Of a stretch of DNA of 64,000 nucleotides, positions 1,867-58,585 are shown piece after piece. Under the pieces are notes generated by a model. That model was not told the DNA's origin and did no database searches. It saw only the letters and a list, made by a program, of their open reading frames with translations. How positions within the stretch are numbered: the stretch's first letter is position 1; the number at the start of each line of letters is the position of its first letter. The DNA is from Ostreococcus lucimarinus (Eukaryota). The translations under genes were made by a program, and so were the position numbers. The stretch lies in assembly GCA_000092065.1 (NCBI GenBank), contig CP000587.1; one strand, given 5' to 3'.

Positions 1867-2144
1867 CGTTCGTTTCCCTCGCTTCCCTCGCGAGCGCGCC
1901 TCCGGGACGACGACGCGACGACGCGCCGTCGCGATGTGAGGCGCGCCGCAGCCGCCACTCGGCGCGTCGAGGGATCGATTGATTGGTTGATTGCGGCGTG
2001 CGATGACTCGAATGCGTCATCGCACGGCGCGCGAATCGCGAATCGTGAAAACTCGCGACGAAAGCGCGGACGCGACGCGGACCGAGGCGCGTCAACGGCG
2101 CGCGACGCGCGTCTAGAACGAGCGAAGGACGAACGAAGGCGAGG

Positions 2145-2974: not shown

Positions 2975-4213
2975 CTAGTAAGTATCATCAATCGCGGCCT
3001 GCTCAGCTGATGGTAAATGCAACAAATGGTTGATGCATACGGCGACGGGATCTTTTGCCGGTCCACCCTTCATATTAATTACCGACATCCCACCGGGCGA
3101 AAGACTAAACATTTCTCCGCTATTCCTCTCTAGAGCGTGCGCTAGGAAATCTTGGCATACAACTTTGTCGTGAATGACGAAAGTAGAGCCCCCACCTTGA
3201 GTGCCTTCGGCCAAACTGGTCAAGATATCGTCCACAGAGTTCACGACTTTGGCTTCAAACGGGCACGTGCCGCTCATCTCGCGCTGGCATCGATCGAATA
3301 TCTTCTCCGCCAAACGAGCCGAGGGTCCGTCCGGCGAGTGCAACAGCGCGCCGACTGAGGTATTTTTCAACACGTTCACCATACTCCTTGTAATTTTAGC
3401 CTCTTCCTCTATGCTCGTCGGTGCGTGGACCAAAACGAGGGCGTCCTTCTTTCCAACCGGCGCCTCCGGCGTTTGATTGAAAACTTCTAGCTTAACCCCT
3501 CGCCCTGTGTTCGGCTCAAAGGACTCGTCGATGATCAACCTGCTCACTGCGCAATTACTTTGCACGATGCGTCTAAAATATTCCGGTCCGAGCCCGAGCG
3601 CGCTGCCAATCAGCGCTTGATTTACCGCGTTGTGCGCGACGACGAGAATTTTCGTTTCGCGTCTCGCGAGCAACGCCTCGTTCCACACCCGCGTCGCTCG
3701 ATCCCACAGCTCTCGCACGGGGTAATGTCCGTCGATTTCAAACTCGCTCGGATTCTTTTTCCAATTCGCATAGCTCTGACCGTATCTCTCCATCCCATCT
3801 TCCTTCAACAGCCCCTCAAACGCGTATAAATCAATCTCTCTCAAGTCGTCGACGTCCACGAACGCCGTCCCCGAGCGCGTCCCCCACGCGATTTCCGCCG
3901 TTTCTCGCGCCCGCGCCAGAGGTGATCGCAAGCACACGTCAAATTTATCCAACGCGATCACGTCTTTCGTCAAGTTCGCCTGCGCTTGACCTTTCGCCGT
4001 CAACACGGAAAAATTCGAACTCCCCTGAATCCGTCCTTCCTCGTTCCACGTGCTTTGGCCGTGTCTGACAAAGGTGAAGGCGCGACGCGTCGACGGTGGT
4101 GCGGGCGCTTTCGCGTCGAACGAGCGCGCGACGATCGAGCGACGCGACGATGCACGCACGAAGCGAGACGCCGCCGACCGGGACGGCGCACCGAACGACG
4201 ACGACGTCCGCAT
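2975..4213 (-). CDS. Histidine-phosphatase (phosphoglycerate-mutase-like) family protein with an N-terminal transit-peptide-like extension
   Basis: RHG motif FTFVRHGQSTWNEEGRIQG, second catalytic His region ILVVAHNAVNQALIGSALG, ATG at 4213. The R/S-rich N-terminus is MRTSSSFGAPSRSAASRFVRASSRRS. Confidence 0.7.
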   Translation of the reverse strand: MRTSSSFGAPSRSAASRFVRASSRRSIVARSFDAKAPAPPSTRRAFTFVRHGQSTWNEEGRIQGSSNFSVLTAKGQAQANLTKDVIALDKFDVCLRSPLARARETAEIAWGTRSGTAFVDVDDLREIDLYAFEGLLKEDGMERYGQSYANWKKNPSEFEIDGHYPVRELWDRATRVWNEALLARRETKILVVAHNAVNQALIGSALGLGPEYFRRIVQSNCAVSRLIIDESFEPNTGRGVKLEVFNQTPEAPVGKKDALVLVHAPTSIEEEAKITRSMVNVLKNTSVGALLHSPDGPSARLAEKIFDRCQREMSGTCPFEAKVVNSVDDILTSLAEGTQGGGSTFVIHDKVVCQDFLAHALERNSGEMFSLSPGGMSVINMKGGPAKDPVAVCINHLLHLPSAEQAAIDDTY

Positions 4214-4328: not shown

Positions 4329-5050
4329 TCACGCCCACGCGGAGACGGAAGAAACACTACGAACGAGCACGTCGTTGAACCACGCGACGAAGGCGACGGT
4401 AAGAAACACCATGACGAGTCCGACGAATGGCGTCACCGCTTCTTCCCGCGCGCTCGAGTCGTCAAACGCCCCGCTCGATAACTTTGTCATCGACGGCTTG
4501 CGCTCAGGAAACCCGTTCGGCAGCGAGCTTTCGAATCGCACCTTCGACCGCTGTCGTTTCTCCGCGAAACTCCCCGACGGCGATAAGATCCCTCTCGCGC
4601 TTCCGTGTCGTCCCACCGCTCGCGCGCTCGCGGAGACGCCGTCCTCGTCCTCGTCCTCGCCTCGCGCGTCTAACAAATCCTCTTCGAAATCGTCCTCCTC
4701 ATCGATCCCTCGTCGAAACGGTCGTCCGCGCGCGTCGTTCTCTTTCCCATCCAACCACCGCGTCGTCTTCCTCGCGTCGCGTCCGCGCGGCGACGTCCCA
4801 TTCGTCGGCGACGCGCCCATCGTCGCGCGTCCGCCCTCGCGGTGTGCGCGATCGTCCGCCGTCGACGGTGCCGCGTCGTCGCGCGCGCGCGCCTCGCGCG
4901 TGGGTTCACCCATCACTCGCTCGTCCGGTCTCGGACGCGCGCGCGACGCCGTGTGTCCATCACACGAGTCCCGAACGCCGTCGCACCATCCATCCATCGC
5001 GCCATCCATCGGCGGTCCGACGGATCCGGATCGGGACGCGGGCGCGATGG
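4329..5050 (-). CDS. Hypothetical low-complexity protein with a single C-terminal transmembrane helix (tail-anchored type)
   Basis: The C-terminal ...KLSSGAFDDSSAREEAVTPFVGLVMVFLTVAFVAWFNDVLVRS is hydrophobic. The upstream part is R-rich low complexity and the true start is unclear. Both strands show open frames here because of the GC content. Confidence 0.2.
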
Positions 5051-5187
5051 ACGGATGGCGTGACGACGACGACGCGTCGACGTCCGCACGCGGTGGCGCG
5101 CGAATCGAATGTTCACCGCGTCGTGCGCGCGAAGAGCGACGACGAGGACGACGGCGCACGCGTTGCGCGCGCTGAAACGCGCGCGAC

Positions 5188-5216
<29 letters not shown>
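5188..5216. repeat. (GAC)n trinucleotide microsatellite, ~10 units
   Basis: cgacgacgacgacgacgacgacgacgacg read directly. It encodes a poly-Thr or poly-Asp run depending on frame. Confidence 0.9.
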
Positions 5217-5220
<4 letters not shown>

Positions 5221-5246
5221 CGGCATCGCGCTCGACGCCGTCCGCG

Positions 5247-5744
5247 ATGCGAGGGGTGAAGAAGGAAAACTTGCCGAGCAAGGTGTGCGTGGTGTGCGAC
5301 AGACCGTTCACGTGGAGGAAAAAGTGGGAAAACTGTTGGGACGAAGTGACGACGTGCTCGAAGTCGTGCAACGGTAAGAGGAAGAGCGAACGACAGCGAG
5401 AGAACAAGGAAACGCGAGGCGAAGACGAAGACGAAGACGCGCGAGCGGCGCATAAGAAGTCGGTCAAGGCGCAAAAGGCGGAACGGAGGGCGCGATTAGA
5501 ATTCAATGGTAATCCAACGAGCGGGCAAAAGGCGTGCGATGAATGCTCGAAGATGGTGAACGAGCTGATTCGATGTCAAACGGACGCGACGAAACGGTGG
5601 CGTATGGTCTGCGGTTCGTGTTGGGTGAAAGTGAGCGGCGGCGTGGTGGATGGTGACGCAAATCACCCGCATTATCGATACGGTGGGTTATGGAAGAATA
5701 GACGCGCGCAAAATGCCGACGGAGGCGAGCCTTTAGTCTGTTAG
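5247..5744 (+). CDS. Zinc-ribbon protein, DUF2256-like (CxxC...W(R)KKWxxxWDEVxxCSxxC) followed by a second Cys-rich module
   Basis: [46 protein letters not shown]... then ..[24 protein letters not shown]. The ATG at 5247 was checked. The upstream in-frame part of the track ORF is a poly-Thr tract from a (GAC)n microsatellite. Confidence 0.55.
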
Positions 5745-6817: not shown

Positions 6818-7574
6818 GTTCGCTGCGGTTGATCTCGCAAGTGCGCCGACGTGTGCTGTCTGTCGCCCACGCGCGATGTCGACATCAATCACTCTGCGCT
6901 CCACTCGAGCCAACATCCAGAAACGACTTGTCAAACAGTCGAGGCCGAGTTGTGAACGTCAACATGGAAAGTCTTACCCAGGTATCCATATGGATTTCGA
7001 TGCCCGCTCACAAATCGCGGAGAATTCAAGGAAATCCCCGACGGCGTACGCTGCACACCATGAACGCGCGTCGCGGTCGATTCGGCCGGCGTCGCGGTCG
7101 CTACCTCGGCGCGCGAGAAATAAATGAAATAATTAAATAATTTCTATGCGAACGCCACGGGCTCGCCAGCGAAGCGTCAATCGCGCGTCGCGCTCGACGC
7201 CCGTAATAATGCGATCACGAATCACCAATGGAATTAATTTCACGCGAAACCACGCGCATCTCGGTCGTCTGATATCAAATTCACACTTTCGACGACTGCT
7301 GGGCGAAAATTTCTCACATCGAGATGATCTGTCAAAACACATGCATGTCGCGTCGATAGGCGTAGAACCACCAAAAGTGCATTTGTTGGAGGTAAATGGT
7401 GTGTCGAAACTCATAGCCGCAACTTTTACAAAACCTTGACGCGATTCAGTGCTTGTGCATTCACGTTCCATGATGACGATAATTAAATATAATCTGAGCG
7501 CTTAAAATAATTAATTGCGCGGCGGAAACAATTCATTCGCGCTTGATATTGCACGTGCTATCTTGCTAAGTTTT

Positions 7575-9106: not shown

Positions 9107-9437
9107 CCCGCGCGCGCTGCGGCGGTCGCCGCGCGCGTGTAGGCGGGTTTAGGCCTCGACCCGGGACGCCCTGAAATCCGACCGCGACGCGCCCGTTTCG
9201 CCGACGCGTCGAGGCGCGGTCGCGGCGCGCGGGGTCGTCCCGGCGAGTTCGCGCCTCGACGGTCGAGCGCCGAGCGGTGCCGATCGAGCGTCGATCGCGC
9301 GATAGACGATAACGGGGGAAGCCAAGCCGTGAAGCCAGCGCTCGGTGCGACCGCGCGCGGCGGCGACGGCGACGCCAGACTGCGGTCGACGAGGGACAAA
9401 TTTTAGATTGGATTGCGAGCGGCGCCGGTGACGCGTC

Positions 9438-16574: not shown

Positions 16575-16863
16575 CACTTCACCTTTCGTCGCGTTCTGCG
16601 CGCGCGACGTTCACACGTCAGTCATTAATCCACGTCTGCAAATCAATCGGCGCGTGGCGGGGTCGCGTCGATGCGTCCTGAACGCACCGTCATGACGCTC
16701 CAGACGCGTCGAACGGAGGTTTTCGCGGCGTGAACGCGAGCGTTAGGGACGATGTTTACTTTCGCGATCGCAGCGTTGGCGTGCATAACGATCTGCGCGC
16801 GCTGGACTGAGGCGCTTCTCGACAGGTGGGGGCTTCGTGTTTTTACAAATATCCACACACGAA

Positions 16864-17919: not shown

Positions 17920-18198
17920 CGCGCGCGCTCGCGCGTCGGCGCGCGTCGAGCAATCCCAATCGTTCGCGCGCGGCAACGACCGCGGTCGGTCGGTCGGTCG
18001 GTCGTCGGTCGCGGTCGGTCGACGCGCGTTCGAAATCGCGTACAACGCGTAAATGCGCGCCCAAGAGACGCGCGCGTGCGCGTCGTCATAAGTCTTAAAC
18101 ACTGATCACAAACACGGACACCACGGCCCGATCGCGCGCGCACGCCCTCGCCCTCGCCCCGTCGCATCGACCTCTTTACGCGACGCGAGCGACGAGAC

Positions 18199-19019: not shown

Positions 19020-19967
19020 TCACATGATGTTGTTGTCGCGCATCAATTTGCGCACTTGCTCGAGCGTCAGAAACATGCACACGTTCCAGCCCCCGAGTCT
19101 GGCAAAGTTGGGTAAGAACCCACCGTAGAACGCCATCGGACCCTCGTTTGCGAGCGTCTTCGTGACGCAATCGACGAAACCTTTGTACTTACCCGTGCTA
19201 TCTCCCATCACTCGCGATTTAACCACGTCCACCGGGCTCCCGACGCAGCACGCGACGAATCCCGCGCCCAACGCCGAGGCGATGTGCGTGACGACGTCGT
19301 CCTTCATCCCCACGCCCAAGAAACTTTGCTTGAACTGATCGTACGACGCGAGCTCGGCGGCATTAACAATCGAGTTACGCATGATGTTGGGCGTCAATCC
19401 CGTCCACAGCGCGGCGAGGCCCTCTTGCCTGACGATGACGCCGTACGCCCCGACTGCGCTTGGATACTTTTTCGGCGTCCCCGGCGCGAGTTTTCCCTCC
19501 GCTTGCATGCGAACCTTGACCAAATCCGTCGGCGACGCCACCATTATCCCAATCCCACCCGTCGTGAGCCCCGCCGCGATTTTCAGGTGCAAGGGCACGT
19601 CCCCCACGTGTTCCTCGCCGACGTAAAACGTCTTCACGGGTTCGTACAACCCGATGCGCAAGCCGCCGAACAGCACCTGGCGATGGATCCCCGGGGTGAT
19701 TCCTTTCCACAGCGCCCCGATCCCCTCCTCCGCCGCCACCGCGCGCATCGTTCCGAGCATCCCAGCGCCCCGGCCGCGCGTCGTCGCCGTCGCCGTCGCG
19801 CTCGCGCCTCGCAGCTGCAGTCGCACCTTGACCGTGTCGAGAGGAATCGTGCAAAACTCCGCGAACGACGCCGAGAACGCGCTCGCGGCGAGGCCGCCGA
19901 GGAAGGGATTCACGAGCGGCGTTTTCGTTTTCGTTCTCGTCGCCGTCGCGTCGCCCTCGCGCGCCAT
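19020..19967 (-). CDS. Mitochondrial carrier family protein (uncoupling-protein / dicarboxylate-carrier-like)
   Basis: Three carrier repeats carry the P-x-[DE]-x-x-[KR] signatures (PLDTVKVRLQ, PTDLVKVRMQ, PVDVVKSRVM). The track start is a GTG. The first ATG is at ~19967 (MAREGD...). Confidence 0.85.
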   Translation of the reverse strand: MAREGDATATRTKTKTPLVNPFLGGLAASAFSASFAEFCTIPLDTVKVRLQLRGASATATATTRGRGAGMLGTMRAVAAEEGIGALWKGITPGIHRQVLFGGLRIGLYEPVKTFYVGEEHVGDVPLHLKIAAGLTTGGIGIMVASPTDLVKVRMQAEGKLAPGTPKKYPSAVGAYGVIVRQEGLAALWTGLTPNIMRNSIVNAAELASYDQFKQSFLGVGMKDDVVTHIASALGAGFVACCVGSPVDVVKSRVMGDSTGKYKGFVDCVTKTLANEGPMAFYGGFLPNFARLGGWNVCMFLTLEQVRKLMRDNNIM

Positions 19968-20224
19968 CTCGAGACCCCGCGCCGAACGCGCGACGCGACG
20001 CACTGCGGACGACAGCCCCGCGCGCGCGCCGACCGACCGACGACTGGGCGACGCGGGATCGTCCTGGGGTTCATCCTGGGGTTCAGGCTGAATCCTCGAT
20101 TATTTTTAGCGATCGTCGAGACGCCCTCTCGTCGCGCATTGAAGGATGCGAATGCGCCGTGATGTGTCCCCTCCGCGCGCGACCGCGACCGCGACGCCAC
20201 ACGGCGACGCGCGACGTCACGCGC

Positions 20225-20263
20225 GATTGATTTGATTTGATTTGGATTGGATTCGATTCATCG
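20225..20263 (+). promoter_or_regulatory. (GATTG/GATTTG)n tract immediately upstream of the start codon
   Basis: gattgatttgatttgatttggattggattcgattcatcg|ATG read directly. The same motif class recurs upstream of at least seven other genes (see findings). Confidence 0.5.
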
Positions 20264-21214
20264 ATGGCGATCGCGGCGCGGCGAACGGCGTTCGCGGGCG
20301 CGAGCGCGAAGACGGGGAGAGACGCGCGAACGACGCGAACGACGCGACGCGCGGTGCGGCGAACGACGACGCGCGCGAGCGCGGACATCATGGATGAAGT
20401 CGGAACGCTGACGGTGTCGGACGACCAACTGAAGCGCGAGCGATACGTGGCGAGCAATCGATTTCGGGTGCAGGAGGGGAAGGGACCGGCGTTTGAAAAG
20501 CGATGGGCCGAACGACCGAGCCGATTGGCCAAGCTGCCGGGATTTAGGTACTTCACGCTGATGCGACGAGTGGAACCGCCGAGCGACGTCGCGACGACGT
20601 ACGACGAAGACGAGGCAAACTACGTGAGTTTTACGATCTGGGAGACCAAGGATGGGTTCGATGGTTGGCGCAAGGGTGACGCGTTTAAGGAAGCGCACGG
20701 GGGTGGTACGATTTTTGGGTTCATGTCCATGTTGGTGAGCTCGCTTATGATTTTGAAGGGCGGGCCGAAGCCGGCGTTTTACGACGGGTTGTTGTCGCTC
20801 TCCGCGGCGCCGTCGGAGAACTCGAGAAAGTGGCAAGCCGAAGACGGATGGCGACAAATCCCCGCTGACGGTAAGAATCCAATCGATGCCGACGTGTTCG
20901 TGGCGATGAATCGTTTCAAGGTTCGCCCGGGCAAAGAGGCGGCTTTCGAGAAACAGTGGGCCGAGCGCGAGTCCGAGCTTAAAGAGATGCCAGGTTTCAC
21001 GACGTTTTTACTCTTGCGTCGCGATGCGGTGACGCCGGACGATGGGTACAACTACTCGACGTACACGGTGTGGGAAAATCGCGCGGCGTTCGATAACTGG
21101 CGCGCGACGAAGAAGAAGCCGGCGGCGCGCGAGGGAGAACCTCTCTTTGAAGGCGCGCCGAAGCCAGTGTTTTACGAGGGCGTTCTAGCACTTCTCGACG
21201 CCGCGGGGGCTTAG
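20264..21214 (+). CDS. Protein with two tandem ABM / stress-responsive (Dabb) alpha+beta-barrel domains and an R/T-rich N-terminal presequence
   Basis: Two internal repeats: ..VASNRFRVQEGKGPAFEKRWAERPSRLAKLPGFRYFTLMRR.. and ..VAMNRFKVRPGKEAAFEKQWAERESELKEMPGFTTFLLLRR... Each is followed by a Y..FT.WE..(D/A)F..W block. The ATG at 20264 was checked. Confidence 0.6.
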   Translation: MAIAARRTAFAGASAKTGRDARTTRTTRRAVRRTTTRASADIMDEVGTLTVSDDQLKRERYVASNRFRVQEGKGPAFEKRWAERPSRLAKLPGFRYFTLMRRVEPPSDVATTYDEDEANYVSFTIWETKDGFDGWRKGDAFKEAHGGGTIFGFMSMLVSSLMILKGGPKPAFYDGLLSLSAAPSENSRKWQAEDGWRQIPADGKNPIDADVFVAMNRFKVRPGKEAAFEKQWAERESELKEMPGFTTFLLLRRDAVTPDDGYNYSTYTVWENRAAFDNWRATKKKPAAREGEPLFEGAPKPVFYEGVLALLDAAGA

Positions 21215-28265: not shown

Positions 28266-29000
28266 TTACATCGCAAACGCTGCAGCTAAAAGCGTGGATG
28301 CGACGACCACGACGCGCGGAGCGAGCGTCGCCCCCCCCGCGCTCGTCGTCGCCGTATTGTCTCGCACCAAACTCCACGCGTTCGTGTCGATATTAAACTC
28401 CCACACGTCATTCATACCGTTCCCTCCGAACACGAGACACGCCGCGCCCTGTTCCCCGTGCGGCGTCGTCGTCGCCGCCCCGCTTCGCCTCGGCGGTCTC
28501 GTCCCGCCCACCGGGGAAATCGCGCTCCACCGTCCCGCGGCGCGGTTAAACACCCACAAATCGTCGAAATCTCCCACCCCCCCCCCGTACCCTCCGAACA
28601 CGTACAGATTCCCGCGCAGCGCGCACGCGCTCGCCCCACTCCTCCCGCGCGGTTTCGCCCCCCCCCCCGTCCCTCCCTCGTGCAATCGCGTCCACATCCC
28701 GTCGTAAATCCCCGCGCTCGCGTTCCACCTCAAGTCGTACTCCCACACGTCGTTCGCGTCCCGTCCCGTCGCGAGCTCCCGTCCGCCGAACACCACCATC
28801 CGCGCGCTCGTCGTCGCCGTCGCCGCGAACGTCCCGCTCGCGCTCCCCGTCCGCCCCGTCGGCGTCGTCCCGAACCGCGTCGCGTCCTGGCTCGACACCC
28901 GCGGCGTCGTCGTCGTCGCGCGCGCGTCGTCGACGCGCGTCGCCGCGATCGCCAGCGCGACCGCCATCGCCAGCGCGCGCGCCGTCGCGAACCGCACCAT
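28266..29000 (-). CDS. Kelch-repeat (galactose-oxidase-type beta-propeller) protein with an N-terminal signal peptide and a hydrophobic C-terminal tail
   Basis: MVRFATARALAMAVALAIAATRV is signal-peptide-like, with ATG at ~29000. Repeated blocks of the ..VFGG....NDVWE(Y/F).. and ..LYVFGGYGG.. type are present. The C-terminus is ..VVVVASTLLAAAFAM*. Confidence 0.6.
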   Translation of the reverse strand: MVRFATARALAMAVALAIAATRVDDARATTTTPRVSSQDATRFGTTPTGRTGSASGTFAATATTSARMVVFGGRELATGRDANDVWEYDLRWNASAGIYDGMWTRLHEGGTGGGAKPRGRSGASACALRGNLYVFGGYGGGVGDFDDLWVFNRAAGRWSAISPVGGTRPPRRSGAATTTPHGEQGAACLVFGGNGMNDVWEFNIDTNAWSLVRDNTATTSAGGATLAPRVVVVASTLLAAAFAM

Positions 29001-29332
29001 CGCCGTCGACGCCGCGCGCGCGTCGCGTCGTCGCGTCGTCGCGTCGCGCGCGTCGACGGCCGCGGCGTCAACGGGCGCGGCGACCGACCGACCGACGGAC
29101 GGCCCGCGTTTTTGCGTTTTTACGTCGTCTCGAGACGCATTCGAGGGCTCGGAATCCCTAACGACGTCCAGGCGGTGCGGACGGTGCGGATGGATGTTTG
29201 ATGTGTGCGCACGCCACCAGATGCGCTTTCGAGCGCCCATTCGACCGATCGTGACTCGAGAACGACCCCGCACGCCGCGCGCGCGACGCGACAGGCTGTC
29301 TCGTAACGAGCGGGCCTAACGGCCGGGCGGCG

Positions 29333-29372
29333 CGATTGATTGATTTGATTGATTGATTGCGCGCGATTGCGA
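29333..29372 (+). promoter_or_regulatory. (GATTG)n / (GATTGCG)n tract upstream of the 6PGDH start codon
   Basis: gcgattgattgatttgattgattgattgcgcgcgattgcgattgcgcgacgcggccATG read directly. Confidence 0.5.
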
Positions 29373-29387
29373 TTGCGCGACGCGGCC

Positions 29388-31001
29388 ATGGCGTGCGCGG
29401 CGAGATCGGCGACGACGAACGCGACGACGGCGGCGCGGAGACGCGAAGCGACGACGCGCGCGGGACGACGACGCGGGATGACGGCGACGGCGCGCGCGAC
29501 GGCGGCGAACGGGGCGGGCGAAAAGTCGCGGATCGGGCTGTGCGGACTCGCGGTGATGGGACAAAACCTGGCGCTGAACGTGGCGGAGAAGGGATTCGAC
29601 ATCTCGGTGTACAATCGATCGAGCGATAAGACGGACGTGTGCGTCGAACGGGCGAAGAAGGAGGGATTGGGGGCGAAACTGCGAGGGTATCACGAGATGA
29701 AGGATTTCGTGGCGTCGCTGGCGAAGCCGCGATGCGTGATAATCTTGGTGAAAGCGGGCGCGCCCGTGGACGCCACGATCGCGGGATTGTCGCAGTTTCT
29801 CGAACCTGGAGATTGCATCATCGATGGTGGGAACGAGTGGTACGAAAACACCGAACGACGATCGAAGGAGGCGGCGGAGAAGGGATTGCTGTACGTCGGC
29901 ATGGGCGTGAGCGGAGGCGAGGAGGGCGCGCGCAACGGACCGTCCATGATGCCGGGTGGGTCCAAGGAAGCGTACGATATCATCGCTGATATCTTAAAGC
30001 CCGTGAGCGCGCAGACCGATTCGGGGGCGTGCGTGACGTACGTCGGCCCAGGAGGCGCCGGGAACTTTGTCAAGATGGTGCACAACGGCATCGAGTACGG
30101 CGACATGCAACTCATCTCCGAAGCGTACGACGTGTTGAAAACCGTCGGCGGGTTGACGAACGATGAACTCGCGGCTGCGTTCACGGAATGGAACGAGGCG
30201 GAGTTGGAATCGTACCTCATCGAGATCTCCAGCATCATTTTGGCCAAGAAGGACGACCAGTCTGGCAAGAGCGACGACTTTTTGGTGGACAAGATCCTCG
30301 ACAAGACTGGCATGAAGGGCACTGGAAAGTGGACGGTGCAGCAAGCCGCGGAATTGTCCATCGCTGCGCCGACGATCGCGAGCTCTCTTGACGCCCGATG
30401 CTTGTCCGGATTGAAGGATGAACGCGTCAACGCCGAGGCGTTTTACGCCAAGCTCGGCTTGGCACCCGCCGGCGCCATGGGCCCGGCGGACAAAAAGCAA
30501 CTCATCAACGACGTGCGATATGCTCTGTACGCTTCCAAGGTGACTTCCTACGCCCAAGGCATGAACCTGATTCGCGCCAAGTCCAACGAGCAAGGCTGGA
30601 ACTTGAACCTCGGCGAAATGGCGCGCATCTGGAAGGGCGGCTGCATCATTCGCGCCGGCTTCTTGGACCGCATCAAGAACGCTTACGACCGAGACTCCAA
30701 GCTCCCGTCTCTTCTCGTTGACGAGCAGTTCGCCAAGGAAATGATCGAACGCGAAGCTTCGTGGCGTCGCGTCGTCACCGCCGCCATCAACGCCGGTGTT
30801 TCCGTGCCGTCCATGAGCGGTTCTCTCGCGTACTTTGACACTTACCGCCGCGCGCGCTCGCCGGCAAACTTGGTGCAAGCGCAGCGTGACTTCTTCGGTT
30901 CGCACACGTACGAACGCACCGACATGGAAGGCTGGTATCACACGCTCTGGAGTGATATGAACAGCGCTGACAGCATCACCACGTCTGGCTACAAGGCGTA
31001 A
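29388..31001 (+). CDS. PGD: 6-phosphogluconate dehydrogenase (decarboxylating), with a ~45-aa N-terminal transit-peptide-like extension
   Basis: ..RIGLCGLAVMGQNLALNVAEKGF..., ..ILVKAGAPVD.., ..CIIDGGNEWYENTERR.., ..KMVHNGIEYGDMQLISEAYDVL.., ..DKILDKTGMKGTGKWTVQ.. are all textbook 6PGDH blocks. The ATG at 29388 (MACAARSATTNATTAARRREATT...) is S/T/R-rich. Confidence 0.9.
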   Translation: MACAARSATTNATTAARRREATTRAGRRRGMTATARATAANGAGEKSRIGLCGLAVMGQNLALNVAEKGFDISVYNRSSDKTDVCVERAKKEGLGAKLRGYHEMKDFVASLAKPRCVIILVKAGAPVDATIAGLSQFLEPGDCIIDGGNEWYENTERRSKEAAEKGLLYVGMGVSGGEEGARNGPSMMPGGSKEAYDIIADILKPVSAQTDSGACVTYVGPGGAGNFVKMVHNGIEYGDMQLISEAYDVLKTVGGLTNDELAAAFTEWNEAELESYLIEISSIILAKKDDQSGKSDDFLVDKILDKTGMKGTGKWTVQQAAELSIAAPTIASSLDARCLSGLKDERVNAEAFYAKLGLAPAGAMGPADKKQLINDVRYALYASKVTSYAQGMNLIRAKSNEQGWNLNLGEMARIWKGGCIIRAGFLDRIKNAYDRDSKLPSLLVDEQFAKEMIEREASWRRVVTAAINAGVSVPSMSGSLAYFDTYRRARSPANLVQAQRDFFGSHTYERTDMEGWYHTLWSDMNSADSITTSGYKA

Positions 31002-31180: not shown

Positions 31181-32248
31181 CTAGAAAACCGCACCGATGC
31201 GCTCGTCGAGCGCGCCGCGAGACCGCTTCGCGTTTCTACGCTCGGCGCCCCTCTCCGGAGCGCTGTGCGTGCTAGGATACGTCGGCATCTCCGCCGGTGG
31301 TTTCGGAGGAGGCGATTCTTGAAAGAAAGGATGCGCCAACGCCTCCGTCGCCGTCCCTCTCTTCTCCGGATCAAACGTCAGTAACACATCGAGCAAGTTG
31401 ACGCCCGCGGCGGAGAGTTTTGGAAAATTAATCTCAAGAAAATTGTACGGTTGCTCGGGCAACTTGAACTTGCGCGCGTGCGGTAACGCGTCCCATCCAG
31501 GCCAAATGTGTGAGTTCGGGCTTCCGAGCAAAGCGCAAATCATGTTCAATTGCTCGATTTCCGTCGAGCCCGGAAACAAGGGCTCGTGCTTGAGAAATTC
31601 GGCGAATATACAACCGACGGCCCACATATCGATCGCGCTCGTGTACGTGTCGCACCCGAACAGCAGCTCCGGCGCGCGATACCAAAGTGTCACCACTTTT
31701 GGCGTGTAACTCCCTCTATCGATCGGTTCGAACGTTCGCGCCAAACCAAAATCGCAAAGCTTCAACTCCCCGCGTTGGTTGAGCAACAAGTTGCTCAGCT
31801 TTAAATCCCTATGAAAGATGAACCTCTCGTGCAGGTACTCCACCGCTCGCAGCGTCTGCGTCATCAGCGATTTCACCTCACTCGTCGTCAACGTCGTCTT
31901 GACGTTATCGATCAGCCTCGCCAAATCGTGTTCGCAATACTCAAACACCAGAAACACGTTATTCAGCGCGTCCCCTTGAATCACCCGCAGCAACCGCACG
32001 ACGTTTTCGTGTCGCACGCGCTGCAGTATCCTCACCTCGCGCAGCGACGTCAGCGGCATCCCATCTCGCTCGCGATCCATGCGCACCTTCTTCAGCGCCA
32101 CGACGTCGCCCGTCGTCTTGCACCGTCCCTTGTACACCACCCCGTACGTCCCCTCGCCGATGCGTCCGAGCTTTTCGTAATTCGTCAGCGTCGCCAGCGC
32201 CGCGCGCGCGTCGCCGTCGCGCGCGTCACCGTCGTCGTCCGCGCCCAT
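31181..32248 (-). CDS. CDK: Cyclin-dependent kinase (CDK10/CDK11-like, P[IL]TSLRE motif)
   Basis: GRIGEGTYGVVYKG (glycine loop), MPLTSLREVRILQ (cyclin-binding helix), HRDLKLSNLLL, DFGLAR, WYRAPELL. The track start is a GTG. The first ATG is at ~32248. Confidence 0.85.
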   Translation of the reverse strand: MGADDDGDARDGDARAALATLTNYEKLGRIGEGTYGVVYKGRCKTTGDVVALKKVRMDRERDGMPLTSLREVRILQRVRHENVVRLLRVIQGDALNNVFLVFEYCEHDLARLIDNVKTTLTTSEVKSLMTQTLRAVEYLHERFIFHRDLKLSNLLLNQRGELKLCDFGLARTFEPIDRGSYTPKVVTLWYRAPELLFGCDTYTSAIDMWAVGCIFAEFLKHEPLFPGSTEIEQLNMICALLGSPNSHIWPGWDALPHARKFKLPEQPYNFLEINFPKLSAAGVNLLDVLLTFDPEKRGTATEALAHPFFQESPPPKPPAEMPTYPSTHSAPERGAERRNAKRSRGALDERIGAVF

Positions 32249-32574
32249 GCCGCGCGCGCCGCGGTGCGCCGCATCATCATCGCGCGCATCCGACGGCGAC
32301 CGACCGATTCGTCCCGACGACCCCACGCGCGCGGTTCGCGACTCGTCGAGTCCCCGACGGGACGAACGCGCCGACGCGCGACCGGTCGCGCGCGGCAGAC
32401 GCGGACGCGACGGCGCGCGACGACCGGACGCGCGGACGCGACGCGCGAGGGACGGACGGACGCGCGAACGCGCCGCGCGAGGGACGCGACGCGCGCGCGG
32501 TGCGATCGACGCGACGCCGGCGCGGTGAAATCGAACGCCGGTGAAATCAATCGACGTTTCTTTGTTCCCCCGCG

Positions 32575-33567
32575 ATGGTGGCGGTGTTCGTCCTGGGCGC
32601 GGCGACGCTGGGGACGGTGGTGATCAACGTGAAGCGAAACGCGATGAAAAAGATGTCGGGATCGATGTTTGAGGACGAAGCGCGACGCGCGGCGGCGGCG
32701 AAGGAACGCGTGGATGGGATCGCGAAATTGCTGGAGGAGGTGAACGCGAAGGCGAACGCGGCGGAGGAGAAGCTGGAGGCGGCGATGCGGGAGAAGAACG
32801 CGATCGAACGCGTGCTCGAGGAGATGGAGAGAACGAAGGCGAATATGAAGGTTGAGAACATGGAGTTGAGAGATTCGGTGACGGTGTTGAAGAATGATTT
32901 GAACAACGCCACGGAACGACATCAATTGGTGGTGCGAAAATGGCGCGACGAGTTGGTGACGTATCGGGAGAAGAGTCCGCAAGATTTCTTGGCCGAAGTC
33001 ATCGGGTTAGTGAGTGATATGGATAACGAAGTGACGATTGAGGTCATTCCTCCCGAAGCTCCGAGAGCGGCGAAGGTGCACGAAGAAGTTCGCTTGGAGG
33101 AGTGCGAGTGGGAATACAATCCGCGCCTCGCCGTGGCGGATTCGACGCGCTTGTTGATGCTCGCCAACAGTGGACGTGTAGTCAAAAAGACTCGCGAGGA
33201 GAAGGTGAAGAAGGTGACGGGCGTCAAACCCGTCGCCTCGCCTCACAGAGCGACGACGCCCACGCGCGCGGCGCTCGGCAAGCTCACCAACACCGGCGTG
33301 CAACGCGCTCAAGGCGTCGCTCACAAGGCGGCTCGCTTGGTGCAAGCCAACCACGTGGCGAATACCCCGCCGCCGAAGGTTGCCACGTCCGATCGTTCGA
33401 TAGAGTTTGGCGAGTGCTTACTTTTCGAAAAGCAACTCAAGTCGCCCGTGCGTGCGCCCAAGATTGGCGGCGGGCGAGCGGGCGTCATCGGCGGTTTTGA
33501 AGCCGAAGACGTCATGCCGTTGCCGTCGAGTCCGGCCACCATCATGGATATCGCCATCCGTCGATAA
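32575..33567 (+). CDS. Coiled-coil hypothetical protein
   Basis: The ATG at 32575 was checked. A coiled-coil-like stretch (EARRAAAAKERVDGIAKLLEEVNAKANAAEEKLEAAMREKNAIERVLEEMERTKANMKVENMELRD) is present, with no recognised domain. Confidence 0.4.
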   Translation: MVAVFVLGAATLGTVVINVKRNAMKKMSGSMFEDEARRAAAAKERVDGIAKLLEEVNAKANAAEEKLEAAMREKNAIERVLEEMERTKANMKVENMELRDSVTVLKNDLNNATERHQLVVRKWRDELVTYREKSPQDFLAEVIGLVSDMDNEVTIEVIPPEAPRAAKVHEEVRLEECEWEYNPRLAVADSTRLLMLANSGRVVKKTREEKVKKVTGVKPVASPHRATTPTRAALGKLTNTGVQRAQGVAHKAARLVQANHVANTPPPKVATSDRSIEFGECLLFEKQLKSPVRAPKIGGGRAGVIGGFEAEDVMPLPSSPATIMDIAIRR

Positions 33568-36612: not shown

Positions 36613-37133
36613 CCCCTGCGTCGCGAATCGCGCGCGCGTCCTCGTCAGTCTTCGCTCTCACCCATTTTTTCTTCCCGCGCCCGCTCGCCCTCGATCGCCC
36701 ATCCCTCGATCGTCCTCGTCGTCGCTCGCGCGCGTTCGAACGGGTCAACCGCGCGCGCGTCGTCGCCGCGGATCTCCACGATCTCGATCCCTCCCCATCC
36801 TCTTCTCTTCCCGCGTTCCCATCGCGCGCCGCGTCGTAATCCGCGTCGCCACGAACGCACCCCATCCCCAGCCGCGTCGTAATCCGCATCGCTGTCGTAC
36901 GACCGCTCGCTCGCGTCGCCGTCGTCGTCGCTCGCGTCGCTCGGCGCGTCCTCGAACGCGATGGCGTCCTCGGGGTCGACGTGTTCGTCCACCGCGTCGC
37001 CGGAGGCCGCGCCGTGCGTCGCGGACGTCATCGCGCGCGAGACGCTCGAGATCGATCGGTCGCTCGGCGCGTCGCGCGGGCGTCTGCGCGCGCGCGTCGC
37101 GACGCGATCGACGCGACGCGATCGACCGCGCGT

Positions 37134-37187
37134 GGTCCGTGTGTGCGACTGGTCCGTGTGTGCGACTGGTCCGTGTGTGCGACTGGT
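37134..37187. repeat. Tandem repeat, ~17-bp unit x3 (GGTCCGTGTGTGCGACT)
   Basis: ggtccgtgtgtgcgactggtccgtgtgtgcgactggtccgtgtgtgcgactggtccg read directly. It lies in the divergent intergenic region between ISWI and the SulP transporter. Confidence 0.85.
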
Positions 37188-37221
37188 CCGCGCGCGAGGC
37201 CACCGCGTGACGCCGTGCGTC

Positions 37222-42010: not shown

Positions 42011-42020
42011 CATCCCTCGC

Positions 42021-42090
42021 GTTCGTTCGCGCGTTCGTTCGCGCGTTCGTTCGTTCGTTCGTTCGTTCGTTCGTTCGTTCGTTCGCGCGT
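42021..42090. repeat. (CGTT)n / (CGTTCGCG)n simple repeat
   Basis: cgttcgttcgcgcgttcgttcgcgcgttcgttcgttcgttcgttcgttcg... read directly. All three minus-strand frames read through it in the track as RTNE / NERA / TNAR tracts. A related (CGTT/GGTT)n tract is at ~46910-46948. Confidence 0.85.
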
Positions 42091-42273
42091 TCGCGCCTCT
42101 CGACGAAACGCGCCCTCGATCCGCGCGACGCCCTCGATCGCGCCCTCGATCGCGCCCTCCCGCTTCCCGCTTCCCGCGCCGCGCGCGTCGTTCCGACGCG
42201 TCGAGACGCGCGCGCGCCGACCCAATCCATCCCACGCGCGCGCGCGTTCGAACGAATCCTCCGACGTACTCGG

Positions 42274-42293
42274 CTAAACCCTAAACCCTAAAC
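42274..42293 (+). promoter_or_regulatory. Interstitial telomere-like repeat (CCCTAAA)x2.7, a plant telo-box-like AAACCCTAA, followed by A10, ~240 bp upstream of the eIF3a ATG
   Basis: ggctaaaccctaaaccctaaacgcgctttcgtcgaaaaaaaaaataaagATG read directly. It is the only such string in the window. Confidence 0.5.
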
Positions 42294-46520: not shown

Positions 46521-46909
46521 GCCTCGAGTCCGCGTGTGCGACCGGCGCCGATCGCGCGCGTCGCGAATATCTCGTGGAAAACGATCCCTCACTGATATTC
46601 ATACCCACGCGTCAGACCCGTTTTTTTTTTTCGCGCGCGTCGCGCACGCACGAGGTCGTACGTCACACACCGCGAGCGGTATCGAATGAAACCCGAGTCG
46701 TAAAATCGGTCGGTCGCCGCGGTCGGCACCGCGCGCGCGCGGTCGTCGCGATTCGCCGGGACGCGCGCGTCGTCGCCTCGATCGCGCGGTCGCGCGCGCC
46801 GCACACGTCGTCGACGACGGCGCGATCGCGTCGAATCGAATCGATCGCGCGCGGGCGCGCGGGTCGAGGGCGTCGGCGCGAGGGACGCGCGCGAGCGACG
46901 CGCGCGATC

Positions 46910-47005
46910 GTCGTTCGTTCGTTGGTTCGTTCGTTCGTTGGTTCGTTGGTCGATTGATTGATTGATTGCTCGATCGCGCGCTCGATCGGTCGATCGGTCG
47001 GTCGC
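46910..47005. repeat. Composite simple-repeat block, (CGTT/GGTT)n then (GATTG)n then (GATCGGTC)n, in the WRKY/B56 divergent intergenic region
   Basis: tcgttcgttcgttggttcgttcgttcgttggttcgttggtcgattgattgattgattgctcgatcgcgcgctcgatcggtcgatcggtcggtcg read directly. It lies ~110 bp upstream of the B56 ATG. Confidence 0.85.
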
Positions 47006-53767: not shown

Positions 53768-54862
53768 CTACTCCTCCTCGTCCGGGAACAACGCGTCGAC
53801 GAACCCGACCGCGTCGAACGACTGCAAGTCTTGCATCGACTCGCCGACGCCAACGAACTTGACGGGAATCCCCAACTCATCCACCACGCTCACCACCGCG
53901 CCTCCTCGCGAGGTGCCGTCGAGCTTGGTCAAAATGATTCCCGTCACGCCCACGGCTTCGTTGAAAACGCGCGCCTGGTTGAGCATGTTCAACCCGGTGG
54001 TGCCGTCCAAGACGAGTAAAACCTCGTGCGGCGCGCTCGGCAAGCGCTTGGAGATGGAATTCTTCACCCCGACTAATTCATCCATGAGCTGAGAGTTGTT
54101 GTGCAATCGCCCGGACGTGTCCGCGAGCACGACGTCGACGTCGCCCCGCGCGCACGCCTCGTCCACCGCCTTGTAACACACCGCCCCCGGTTTGGTGTTC
54201 GGCGGCGAGTCGCTCATCACCGCTCCCGTGCGTTCAGCCCACGTCGCGAGCTGTTCGGCCGCCGCCGCGCGAAACGTGTCTCCCGGCACCATCATCACCT
54301 TCGCCCCGCTCTCCGCGAATCGATGACTCAATTTTCCCAGCGTCGTCGTCTTCCCCCCCCCGTTCACGCCCACCACCAACACCACGCTCGGTTCGCCCGC
54401 CGTCTCGTTCAATCCAATCTTCATCGCGTCCCCCGCCTTGGTCAACACCTCCACGATCGACGCCTTCAGCGCTCGCCGCACGTCCCCCCCCGTCTTACAC
54501 TCGCCTCGCTCCACGCGCGCGCGCACGCCGTCCGTCACCCGCGTCGCCGCCTTGGGCCCGAAATCCGCCCCCAGCAGCGTCTCCTCCAGCTCCTCCAGCG
54601 CGTCGTCGAAATCCTCCATGCGCCACAGCGCCAACACGTCGTTCACCGCGCTCAATCGCTCCCGCGTCTTCGACGTCCCGTTGAACACGCGCTCGACATC
54701 CATCGCCGTCTTCTTTCGCAGCACCGACGCGAGTTTGCCGAGATCGAATCCCGCGCGCGTCGCGATTCGTCTCGAGCGCGCGTCGCGACGCGCGGTGCGC
54801 GACGACGTCGACGTCGACGTCGTCGCGCGCGCGGGCGTCGCGCGCGTCGCGACGCGCGTCAT
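53768..54862 (-). CDS. cpFTSY: Chloroplast-type SRP receptor cpFtsY (bacterial FtsY homologue with presequence)
   Basis: NG domain: ..[46 protein letters not shown].., ..[19 protein letters not shown].., ..[32 protein letters not shown]... The R/T/S-rich N-terminus is [21 protein letters not shown]... (ATG at ~54862). The track start at 55117 is not needed. Confidence 0.85.
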
Positions 54863-55144: not shown

Positions 55145-58100
55145 ATGATGACGACGGCGACGCGTCGACCGGCGACGACGGCGCGGTGGACGGCGACGCG
55201 GGATTTGGTGAAGAAGAATTCTTTGCGTCGAACGCGCGGGCGCGCGTGCGCGGCGCGCGTGCGGGCGAGCGCGCCGGAACCGCCGACGGTGCGTCGAGAC
55301 ATCGTCGCGCGACGACGCGAAACCCTGTGGATGGCGAGGGTGTGACCTAGGAGACGCGCGCGACGGAGGGCGAGGAGCGACGGCGAGGGCGCGGAGACTG
55401 ACGATGCGAGCGCGATCGGACGATTGATGCGATTAGGATCGAGCGAGCCCGTTCGGGTTCGAGCGCGAGATGGACGCGGTGGAGAAACAAATCGCGGCGC
55501 TGCCGACGGCGGCGCGGTTGGGGGCGTACGGCGCGCTCGTGGCGCTCGGCGCCGGATTGGGGAACGCGGTGGGCTCCGCGATGCCGGCGAACGTCAGGGG
55601 AGGGGCGAAAGCGGCGCTGACGGCGGTCGTCGGTGGTGGCGCCGCGTATGGGGTGTCGGTGGCGGATAAGAAGCGGTTCACGGCGGCGCCGAAGAGCTTG
55701 TGGAACTCGCTGCAGGGACGGGATCCGTTGAGCGTGACGGCTGAGGAAGTCAACGCGATGGGGGCGAAGTTTGGGATCGCGAACATGGGTCAATCGTGCG
55801 CGACGGCGATGACGGAGCTTTACGACGTCTACTTGATGTCTCTCGTGCCGCAAGGGTTGGATCCGGTGCAAGGTTGGGAAGCCGCGGCTTTGGCGCAGTT
55901 TCGCCAAACGCTCGGCATAGACGACGCCTCGGCGGCGCAGGCGCACTTGGAGGCTGGTCGTCGCTTGTTCAGAAAGCGCATCGAACTCGGATCGACGGAT
56001 AAGGAGACGGACTTGGAATCGCGCAAGGAGTTCCAAAAGCTCGTCTTCATCTCTACGCAAACCTTTGGCGAAGAGCAAGCGCGATTTTTGCTCCCGTGGA
56101 AGCGCGTGTTCCGCGTCTCGGACGCCCAAGTCGACTTGGCCAACAGAGACAACGCGAGCCAGCTGTTGCGCACGAGCTTGTCCAAATCTAACGCCATCGC
56201 TAACGTTGACGCCGCGGCGATCGCGTCGGCGGCTGACTACAAGGCGTCGCTGAATTTGGACGACGACGCCGCCGGTGAAATCGCCCAAGACCTCGCCACG
56301 GCGCACGTCGCCGGCATCGTCAACGGCACCATTACGTTGAACAAGGAACGTGGCTCTGCGCGTGACGTCGGTACGATTTGCAAGAACGTTGAACAAGTTT
56401 TGGCTTACAACGTCAAGCTCGAAGGCGCGCAAGGTTCTTTCCCGGGTGTTGGTCCGGTGACGCTGTTCGGCGGCGAGTTTGACTCGAAGATGACGGAACT
56501 CAAGGACGTGTTCAGAACCTACCTCGAGGAAGGCATCAAGGGTTACTCCTTCAGTGCCGCGCTCAACGACAACCTCGGCAAGCTCCGTCTCGTGTTTGGC
56601 ATGGGCAACAAGGAGGCAGACGACATTATTCTCGCCTCCACCACCGCCTCGTACCGCCTGGCGCTTCGCGACGCCGTCAAGAGCGGCTCGTTGGACAACG
56701 CCGAGTCTCCAGCCAAGGTGCTCCAAGGTTTGTGCGAAGGCCTCCGATTCCCTCCGGAAGTGGCTGCGGGCATTCACGAAGAGAACTATCGCACCAAGCT
56801 CGAGTCCATCATCTCATCGAATAAAAAGCTCGAAGACGCCGACGTCGAAGCCTTGGCTCGCGTTCGCAAGCTCTTGTGCGTGCCGAAGGGCGTCGTTGAG
56901 AAGCTTCACTTTGAAATCTGCGGCGAAATTTACCGCACCGCGGTTCGCTCGGCGCTTTCCGTGCCGACCGAGTCCTTCACTCCGGCGCTTCGCGACCGAT
57001 GCAAGGCTGCCAAGGCAAACGTTCGTCTCGACGACGAAACCGCGCTCAAGATTCTCGGCGCCGAGGCTCGCAAGCAAATGAGTGGTTTCATCCGCACGTC
57101 CAAGTCCATTAGAAACAAGACGGACGCGCAGAAGGAGATTCGCAAGATGATCTTCTACAACCAAGGCGTCGTGACGCCGCTCGTGCAGGACGTGACCAAG
57201 GCAAAGGCTGAGGCGGCGGCGGAGGAGCTCGCCTCGCTCTTGAAGGAGGCGCAAGAGGCGGCGGCGAAGGAGGAAGCGGAAGAGAAGGCGAAAGCCGCCG
57301 CGGAGGCTACCGCGGCGGAGCCTGAAGCCGCCGCTGAGCCCACGGTGGATGATAGCCTTCGAAGTGCGGCGGAGGGTCAAGGCTTCGCCAGTGACACCCC
57401 CAAGAAGGTTGAGGAAGTGAAGGCTGAGGCGGCGACGGAGACCGCGGAGGAGGAAGAGAAAGAGGAAGAAGTCGTCGTCAAGGAGGAAGAAGTCCCGCAC
57501 CAGAAGGAAGTCACGCTCGCCGAAGACATGGATGTGGTCACTCGCCAAGCGATGTACAGAGAATACCTCATGTTCTGCATGACTGGTGATCAAGTGAACG
57601 CCCCGATGGGCGTGCGCATCAACATCGAGCGCGACCAAAGCGAATTCAAGCGCTTGTCCCAGCTCGGCGATATCCTCGGCCTTAACATGATGGAAGTCGG
57701 TCAAGTGCACAAGGATCTGGCCGACAAGGCGTTCCGGACGCAAGCTGAGCAAATGCTCGGCGACGGCCGCGGCCTCACCGCCGATCGCGCCGAGAAGCTC
57801 AAGGAAATTCAGACGCAGCTCAACTTGCCCGAGGACGAGGCGCAAAAGATCATCAAGGGCATCACCTCGCAACGCATGATGTCCAACGTTCAGCAGCAAA
57901 TTGCTTCTGGTACGCTCGATGCGGCTGAGGTGAGAAAGATGATCGAAGCTGGCGTCGAAATCGAGCGCATGATTCCGGAAGACAAGCGCATGAACTTGTT
58001 CCGCAAAAACGCCGAGCGCCGTTTGGGCGACGGAAGCGGAAGCGCCGACATCGAAGCGCTCACGGGTACCTTGGTCGAAGATCTCAAGATTGATGGTGAG

Positions 58101-58448: not shown

Positions 58449-58585
58449 TTTCTCGATCTAGATTGAGAAACGATCCACCGTAGCAAAGAATTGATTGATT
58501 CGAAACTTAAAGCTTTATTGTTGTCATTACGCATGTGGCACGAACAAAAGTCATCTAGATGCTAACGCTACTCTTCGCTCCGCGC

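Follow-up and report, generated by a model that had tools for sequence, protein, structure and literature searches.

Are the short GATT-type repeats that recur just ahead of start codons in the green alga Ostreococcus lucimarinus a promoter element? The question is raised by a 64-kb stretch of contig CP000587.1 (hereafter the window, meaning the whole stretch analyzed), in which a gene for an ABM-domain protein begins immediately downstream of a 35-nt tract of GATTG-like units. A first-pass annotation of the window had proposed such tracts as a candidate core-promoter or transcription start site (TSS) element. GATT-type short tandem repeats are present near the start codon, on the coding strand, in about one fifth of the genes here, and they are real, non-random, and oriented. 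They are found in O. lucimarinus and in related Ostreococcus species. They behave as microsatellites, with copy numbers that differ among wild populations, as replication slippage would produce, and they are not a general core-promoter element.

Frequency and Orientation of GATT-Type Repeats

The gene table of the window contains 39 genes, or 40 if an uncertain open reading frame (ORF) at 4329-5453 is included. It was compiled from gene calls on matching contigs, ORFs combined with codon statistics, and the N-termini of orthologues. The inferred start codons likewise come from these sources and not from transcripts. The tested set consisted of 38 upstream regions, each up to 200 nt before the ATG.

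Seven of the 38 upstream regions contain a tandem run in the sense orientation, against a mean of 0.53 expected, and none of 2000 dinucleotide shuffles reached seven. An antisense tandem run is present in only one region, where the same shuffles predict 0.16. At least one sense GATTG is found in 10 regions (6.2 expected). When all 5-mers in the 150 nt upstream of the ATGs were ranked without bias, GATTG was the top k-mer outside the CG-repeat type. It occurs there 20 times in eight genes on the sense strand and twice in two genes on the antisense strand. GATT units peak at -50 to -1, with 21 sense and 6 antisense copies.

The strand bias is also seen outside the window. The ratio of sense to antisense runs is 7:1 in the window. 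It is 9:1 in an independent tally of the window and external runs that were not hit by the motif seed (binomial p = 0.02), and 12:2 if the seeded loci described below are included (p = 0.013). Skewed base composition was rejected as the source of this bias, since A (0.183) exceeds T (0.153) and G (0.339) is close to C (0.325) in the upstream regions. For (GACC)n and (CGTT)n, two other promoter repeats of these spacers, both orientations were observed.

The tracts are A+T-richer than the surrounding DNA, as the first-pass annotation had stated. Its value of about 65% G+C for the surroundings needs revision, being 59.5% for the window overall and 63-72% within 300 nt on either side of the ATGs. 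Its statement that the motif is essentially nowhere inside coding sequence was too strong. The coding sequence of the window contains nine two-unit runs, seven of them sense, and none with three or more units; the density of runs there is ~5.6 times lower than in non-coding DNA. The convergent 3'/3' spacers sum to only 1.2 kb and hold one short run. Density therefore cannot distinguish 5' from 3' intergenic DNA, and the signal rests on orientation and on distance to the ATG.

Tracts in the Window

The tracts consist of head-to-tail copies of a unit of 1-6 bp, as is seen in their sequences and in the output of Tandem Repeats Finder. GATT, GATTG, GATTTG, GATTC, and GATTGCG are observed as unit variants. 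The longest tract is the 35-nt one upstream of the ABM-domain gene (20225-20259, plus strand). It reads GATTGATTTGATTTGATTTGGATTGGATTCGATTC and is followed by ATCG and then by the ATG at 20264; 5 nt lie between its end and the ATG, and 258 nt separate it from a divergent mitochondrial-carrier gene. Tandem Repeats Finder placed the repeat at 20227-20258, with 6.2 copies of period 5. The tract of the 6PGD gene (29334-29375, plus strand) begins with (GATT)n, interrupted by T insertions, continues with GATTGCG units, and ends 12 nt before the ATG at 29388. The program reported 6.2 copies of period 4 for it, at 29334-29359. The tract of B56, a regulatory subunit of PP2A, is (GATT)4G (46952-46968, plus strand). 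It ends 111 nt before the ATG at 47080, and a (CGTT/GGTT)n repeat sits ahead of it.

The RBMX2 tract (1977-1993, plus strand) reads GATTGATTGGTTGATTG and lies ~150 nt before the ATG at 2145. Three further tracts have two units and are minimal cases of a tandem repeat: GATTGGATTG at PIP5K (9406-9415, plus strand), ending 22 nt before the ATG at 9438; GATTGGGATTG at a gene for a ROK-family kinase (17951-17961, minus strand), ending 31 nt before the ATG at 17919; and GATTGATTTG at a Rossmann-fold gene (16639-16648, minus strand), ending 64 nt before the ATG at 16574.

The first-pass annotation had listed at least eight genes with coding-strand tandem runs. Six of the eight (RBMX2, PIP5K, Rossmann, ABM, 6PGD, and B56) do have them, and the ROK tract had been overlooked. 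The remaining two are not tandem. Tic110 has a single GATTG (55422-55426, plus strand), followed by GATTAG, 44 nt before the ATG, and the gene for an endoplasmic-reticulum thioredoxin-like protein has a single GATTG (6886-6890, minus strand), 68 nt before its inferred exon-1 ATG at 6817.

Three other runs in the window do not follow the pattern or cannot be assigned. The sole antisense counter-example, GATTGATTTC (32543-32552, minus strand), is separated by 23 nt from the start codon of the gene at 32575; the same run is in the sense orientation relative to a kinase gene 295 nt away. In the spacer between a WRKY gene and B56, GATTCGATTCG (46832-46842, minus strand) is 477 and 238 nt from the two ATGs, and its assignment is ambiguous. 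Tic110 and the gene after it converge on a 3'/3' spacer that contains GATTGATTCG (58493-58502, plus strand); short runs thus also occur outside 5' regions.

Copy-Number Variation within the Species

Contigs 99.6-99.8% identical to the window are frequent in the TARA, ENA, and JGI marine metagenomes. For 6PGD and B56, copy numbers were compared across contigs that share 98-99.8% identity with the window. Eight population contigs show 4-7 GATT units and T insertions at 6PGD. The B56 tract was compared in seven contigs; it has four units in the window and in L007-L010, five in L254, and six in L172. The other tracts compared, in 5-6 population contigs, are stable. The ABM tract is constant across six population variants except for one single-nucleotide polymorphism, the ROK tract is unchanged in L001-L006, and the Rossmann tract is unchanged in the matched population contigs.

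The spacer between a Kelch gene and 6PGD is itself variable in length. It differs by up to ~240 nt among L001-L006, which are otherwise 99.6% identical. The 6PGD gene call begins at locus positions 19123-19359 across these contigs.

Distribution in Other Ostreococcus Species

L011, L012, and L013 are syntenic loci of other Ostreococcus species and show 71-73% nucleotide identity to the window. No GATT run is present before the ABM, 6PGD, ROK, or Rossmann orthologues in these loci, nor in any of the 42 promoters there. L257 shares 92% identity with L011. No tract precedes RBMX2, ROK, Rossmann, or ABM in L257, and the single GATTG of the thioredoxin gene is missing there, too; RBMX2 has a single GATTTG only, ~75 nt upstream of the ATG.

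PIP5K and B56 are the two genes whose tracts are retained. At PIP5K, L257 has GATTG...GATTGGATTC ending ~15 nt before the ATG, amid otherwise unalignable sequence. The element GATTGGATT is thereby kept near the ATG, and this comparison is independent of the motif search. The B56 tract is kept in an interrupted form in L255, which represents a lineage of 95% identity. In the species of L243 and L200 (79-88% identity), (GATT)3G is found 143 nt before the B56 ATG and GATTTGGATTG farther upstream, with flanks that cannot be aligned. The retained B56 repeat is (GATT)3-4 across L243/L200 and L255, and it is absent in the species of L256. The single-GATTG sequence of Tic110 is identical in L255. Overall, two of the seven tracts are retained at orthologues, with their orientation unchanged and their distance to the ATG similar, and five are not.

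The carrier/ABM spacer shows how the repeats change. The tract adjoins the ABM gene in O. lucimarinus, and in L257 a tract adjoins the carrier gene: TGATTGATTTGATTGG at 20749-20765, on the opposite strand, ~75 nt before the carrier gene and sense to it. This L257 run is a non-seeded case. At the corresponding spot, L011 carries (GGGATGATGGGT)3. The ABM position is occupied by (GACC)4(GATC)6 in L011 (9935-9974), by (GGTC/GATC)n in L257 (~20950-21030), and by the GATT-type tract in O. lucimarinus. At the ABM promoter, a repeat persists while its sequence changes between species. Two of the 13 promoters in L257 have a tract. Birth and death of tracts are fast, with absences in L011, L012, L013, L256, or L257 and new tracts in L257 (carrier) and L255 ((GATTC)4).

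A metagenome scan with the seed GATTGATTGATTG followed by CGCGC within 25 nt yielded 120 loci. About 20 of them are Mamiellales-like by G+C content and CpG ratio, and duplicates of the window were then removed from these. The other ~100 were set aside, either because their G+C content and CpG ratio are not Mamiellales-like or because they are bacterial coding sequence (for example, L156/L194 and L240). Sense tracts precede long ORFs in L161 (48 nt before an ATG-initiated ORF), L181 (46 nt), and L226 (37 nt). In L137, the seeded run is antisense and abuts the ATG of a divergent helicase gene, and a non-seeded run is sense, 12 nt before a RING-finger gene. The Bathycoccus-like locus L203/L252 is an antisense case. 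Proteins of the distinct Ostreococcus-like seeded loci do not cluster with any named O. lucimarinus protein, and other species therefore carry the motif too. The early impression that the motif is limited to O. lucimarinus was corrected on the basis of L257 and several Ostreococcus-like contigs with sense tracts. A scan of viral contigs for (GATT)4G found generic microsatellite matches only.

Position Relative to the Start Codon

The tracts lie 5-159 nt before the inferred ATG. The gaps are 5, 12, 22, and 31 nt at ABM, 6PGD, PIP5K, and ROK, and 64, 111, and ~150 nt at Rossmann, B56, and RBMX2, respectively. The four tracts ending 5-32 nt from the ATG therefore cannot occupy a TATA-like position, which is ~30 nt upstream of the start site, and a TATA-like role was rejected for them. 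It is likely that these four lie in the transcribed leader or at the transcription start, possibly spanning it. Because the remaining gaps are 64, 111, and ~150 nt, the tracts have no fixed position relative to the ATG.

Orthologues lend support to the upstream ATGs through conserved N-terminal extensions of similar length; the N-terminus of B56 is conserved, too. The NCBI model of the ABM-domain protein (XP_001418775.1, 274 amino acids) begins 42 codons past the first ATG (20264-20389). Its orthologues in other Ostreococcus species are longer (311-320 amino acids) and have a transit-peptide-like N-terminus, so that the annotated ABM start is probably too far downstream. RNA-seq assemblies of O. 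tauri join the transcripts of neighbouring genes, with overlapping untranslated regions (UTRs) (PMC4378021). This overlap argues against ultra-short leaders.

The Logan contig L254 begins 39 nt upstream of the B56 tract. L254 and L256 were considered as possible transcripts, and no TSS was deduced from them. L254 (run ERR9769247) carries an Illumina adapter, AGATCGGAA, at its end (1779-1787), 15 nt past the B56 stop codon. This end is an assembly artefact, and such contig ends are not to be taken as transcript ends.

Gene Models and Other Repeats in the Window

The window is nuclear DNA of the O. lucimarinus type. The ABM-domain protein (20264-21214) shares a 90% cluster with XP_001418775.1 of O. 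lucimarinus CCE9901. Genes are densely packed, and the CpG observed/expected ratio is 1.63. G+C content climbs to 70-80% at the 5' ends of genes, as in the divergent promoters at 20000-20400, 29000-29600, and 32200-32800. At divergent promoters, GC skew flips sign, with G exceeding C on the coding strand 3' of each start.

Exact look-ups for the 6PGD protein and for the protein at 2975-4213 gave no match, and an Rfam scan of the window gave none either. ARAGORN called tRNA-Glu at 53798-53892 (95 nt) and tRNA-Ala at 59575-59657 (83 nt), both within coding sequence. These are probably false positives because of their unusual lengths and their location.

Several spacers contain repeats of other types. 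Between a bZIP gene on the minus strand and eIF3a on the plus strand, 2.9 copies of CTAAACC (TTTAGGG when read from the opposite strand) form an interstitial telomere repeat of the plant type at 42274-42293. It resembles the telo-box near plant translation-related genes. A (CGTT)~18 microsatellite at 42020-42093 ends 7 nt from the bZIP ATG and is antisense to bZIP. This spacer is hypervariable; it cannot be aligned with that of the 95%-identical L255, which has (GATTC)4 there (5210-5230 of L255). Upstream of a gene that starts at 37337, a 17-bp unit, TGGTCCGTGTGTGCGAC, is perfectly repeated in 3.4 copies (37133-37190), followed by TATA-like TATTTAAGG. This 17-bp repeat could represent a repeated binding site for a factor. 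The carrier/ABM spacer also contains a perfect 12-bp direct repeat, TCCTGGGGTTCA x2, at 20062-20085, adjoining A+T-rich ATTATTTTTAG.

Discussion

The GATT-type tracts belong to a known kind, the strand-biased repeats at gene 5' ends, and are not a new class. No GATTG or (GATT)n element was found described in the literature on promoters, TSS, cis-regulation, and microsatellites of Ostreococcus, and no published name for it was found, in line with the remark of the first-pass annotation that no annotation list would name it. In plants, 5' UTRs and proximal promoters are hot spots of repeats (PMC3887541). The CT/GA and CTT/GAA repeats in leaders of Arabidopsis and rice are similar to the tracts in being short tandem repeats that are concentrated at 5' ends, prefer the sense orientation, and vary in length, and they are thought to modulate transcription or translation (PMC3887541). 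The same study covered Chlamydomonas and Volvox, whose 5' regions are repeat-poor. The tracts here differ from the plant leader repeats in their GATT-type unit, which is A+T-richer than the G+C-rich surroundings, in their restriction to ~18% of the window genes, and in not having been described in Mamiellales.

Other gene-dense genomes offer a different comparison. Compact protists have A+T-rich initiators, which are adjacent to the ATG in Giardia, and initiator (Inr) elements in Trichomonas. These are orientation-specific, A+T-rich, and located tens of nucleotides from the start codon in a gene-dense genome, as the tracts are. However, they occur in most genes and are conserved in their lineages, whereas most genes here have no tract, copy numbers vary, and few of the tracts are kept among congeners. 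The unstable tandem repeats of yeast promoters are not known to be strand-oriented or adjacent to the ATG. They share with the tracts a presence in ~1/5-1/4 of promoters, a copy number variable among strains, and an A+T content higher than the context, and differ in acting through nucleosome exclusion, according to the account of Vinces et al. 2009 given in PMC3887541. Strandedness of tandem repeats, in which the sense strand carries a motif far more often than its reverse complement, was described by Mayer et al. 2010 (PMC3152781). They also analysed O. lucimarinus, where repeats of the whole genome are dominated by CG, ACG, and CCG. That part of their study contains no analysis by region or strand and mentions no GATT/AATC type (PMC3152781).

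The proposal of a core-promoter or TSS element holds in part. The tracts are indeed non-random, on the coding strand, near the ATG, and confined to a lineage. They are not a general element, since they occupy ~18% of promoters, are missing from sister species in five of seven cases, vary in copy number, and have no fixed position. A core-promoter element is expected in a large share of promoters and at orthologues in congeneric species. The observed values are 7/38 promoters in the window, 2/7 tracts retained, 0/42 promoters in L011-L013, and 2/13 in L257. The absence at five of seven orthologues, together with copy-number variation, represents the behaviour of microsatellites.

We tentatively favour reading the tracts as a microsatellite cis-element that serves a subset of genes, is sense-oriented and close to the start codon, and is probably embedded in the leader and probably a multi-copy site for a GATT(G) factor. 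Most likely, each tract would serve its own gene by offering a sequence-specific factor several copies of its recognition site. Such a factor would read GATT(G) in one orientation and could act either on DNA beside the start site or on leader RNA. By analogy with the GA/CT repeats in plant leaders and the variable promoter repeats of yeast, the number of repeats would tune expression. A broader version is rather improbable: the tracts would be a Mamiellales-specific, orientation-dependent start-site or leader element, at which a GATT(G) factor, or the adenine-methylation machinery through the dense ApT sites, marks and tunes the 5' ends of some genes, and slippage would rapidly generate heritable expression variation in wild populations.

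Several observations weigh against the favoured reading. The sample is small, consisting of the 64-kb window and ~60 kb of other Ostreococcus-like DNA, and the seed pattern, by demanding CGCGC 3' of the run, may be slightly biased toward the sense orientation. The tract genes share no obvious function, and no factor is known to bind the tracts. Five of the seven tracts are absent before the orthologues of sister species, and even L011 and L257, at 92% identity, differ from each other. Turnover this high is compatible with little or no function. We infer the location in the leader from the gaps between tract and ATG and from the UTR overlap in O. tauri. A role at the RNA level as an unstructured leader was rejected. 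The minimum free energy of the -80 to +30 segment is -44.4 kcal/mol in tract genes and -44.5 kcal/mol in the others, and in silico inversion of the tract weakens the leader structure in all five tract genes tested; the tract leaders are thus as structured as others, and inversion lowers structure. A general role as a supplier of stop codons in all three frames was also rejected: ABM, 6PGD, and Rossmann have such stops before the ATG, and PIP5K and ROK do not. In the 120 nt upstream of 37 ATGs, stop triplets number 87 sense and 47 antisense (63 and 39 in genes without tracts). The sense excess is partly due to start-codon choice, and in genes without tracts it is non-significant after removal of in-frame stops.

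Two explanations would make the tracts promoter elements. In one, which is that of the first-pass annotation, they are a lineage-specific initiator-type core-promoter element, with transcription starting in or at the A+T-richer tract, whose single orientation is read by the general machinery. The orientation bias and closeness to the ATG agree with this, as do the A+T-richer island that a tract forms within DNA of 63-72% G+C, the lack of a TATA-like box ~30 nt upstream of the tracts, and the position and strand kept at PIP5K and B56. However, an initiator is difficult to reconcile with a presence in just seven of 38 promoters, an absence before most orthologues and from the 42 promoters of L011-L013, a distance to the ATG spanning 5-159 nt, and a polymorphic copy number. 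L254, if derived from RNA, would moreover place the B56 tract inside the leader. We consider the initiator unlikely. In the other, the tracts are a repeated form of the inverted CCAAT box (the NF-Y site), GATTGG being the reverse complement of CCAATC, or of another known plant-type box. ATTGG is found once in each of the RBMX2, PIP5K, ROK, and ABM tracts, and the retained PIP5K element has it in both species. This frequency equals the expectation for GATTG followed by a random G, and three of the seven tracts (6PGD, B56, and Rossmann) have no CCAAT, for which reason the NF-Y/CCAAT box was rejected. NF-Y sites are usually located 60-100 nt upstream of the TSS, a placement that is impossible for the tracts ending 5-32 nt from the ATG. 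An explanation by CCAAT or a similar box is extremely unlikely.

It may also be that the tracts are neutral or near-neutral microsatellites, slippage-prone repeats that gather in short, G+C-rich spacers and leaders of low constraint, with a sense bias arising from strand-asymmetric mutation or from sampling. Their length polymorphism fits this, and so do the rapid turnover between species, including (GACC)4(GATC)6 at the ABM promoter position in L011, the many other short repeats held by the same spacers, and the strand-biased repeats reported elsewhere in transcribed regions (PMC3152781). Neutrality does not account for an orientation bias of 9:1 to 12:2 that upstream base skews do not predict, while (GACC)n and (CGTT)n have no consistent orientation. 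Nor does it account for PIP5K and B56 tracts that are kept across species whose flanks no longer align. It is also unlikely by chance (~0.4% by a rough estimate) that, among five seeded foreign loci, one would be orthologous to a window promoter with a tract. Neutrality is likewise considered unlikely. In a further explanation, the tracts are islands of N6-methyladenine (6mA), whose dense ApT sites would seed or strengthen a permissive 5' chromatin mark in promoters poor in ApT. The TSS/ATG region is where 6mA is most frequent in O. tauri and Micromonas, with V-A-T-B (VATB) as the preferred context (PMC12695648; bioRxiv 10.64898/2026.07.10.737489, the O. tauri telomere-to-telomere preprint). 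GATT and its complement AATC both match VATB, so the context is present on both strands. Given this match and the peak of 6mA, a tract could seed such a mark. In the region from -50 to -1, ApT sites number 4.0-8.6 per 100 nt in tract genes and 0.8-2.7 in the others, and the repeat at the equivalent ABM position in L011 includes (GATC)n. However, 6mA is a symmetric mark of DNA, which leaves the strand bias of the tracts unexplained. Most genes have no such ApT island, and 6mA was not linked in general to the local density of ApT in PMC12695648. The 6mA explanation is given a very low probability.

If the tracts are neutral, they still serve as polymorphic markers of populations, and they caution against taking recurrent upstream motifs for core-promoter elements. 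The cis-regulatory signals of Ostreococcus are almost unknown, despite its role as a minimal model eukaryote, its abundance in the ocean, and its spacers of ~200 bp. Expression from compact promoters would become more accessible to study through a strand-oriented, ATG-proximal repeat that occurs in about one fifth of genes, varies in length among populations, and is shared by some orthologues. Such a repeat would help to show how expression evolves in the wild.

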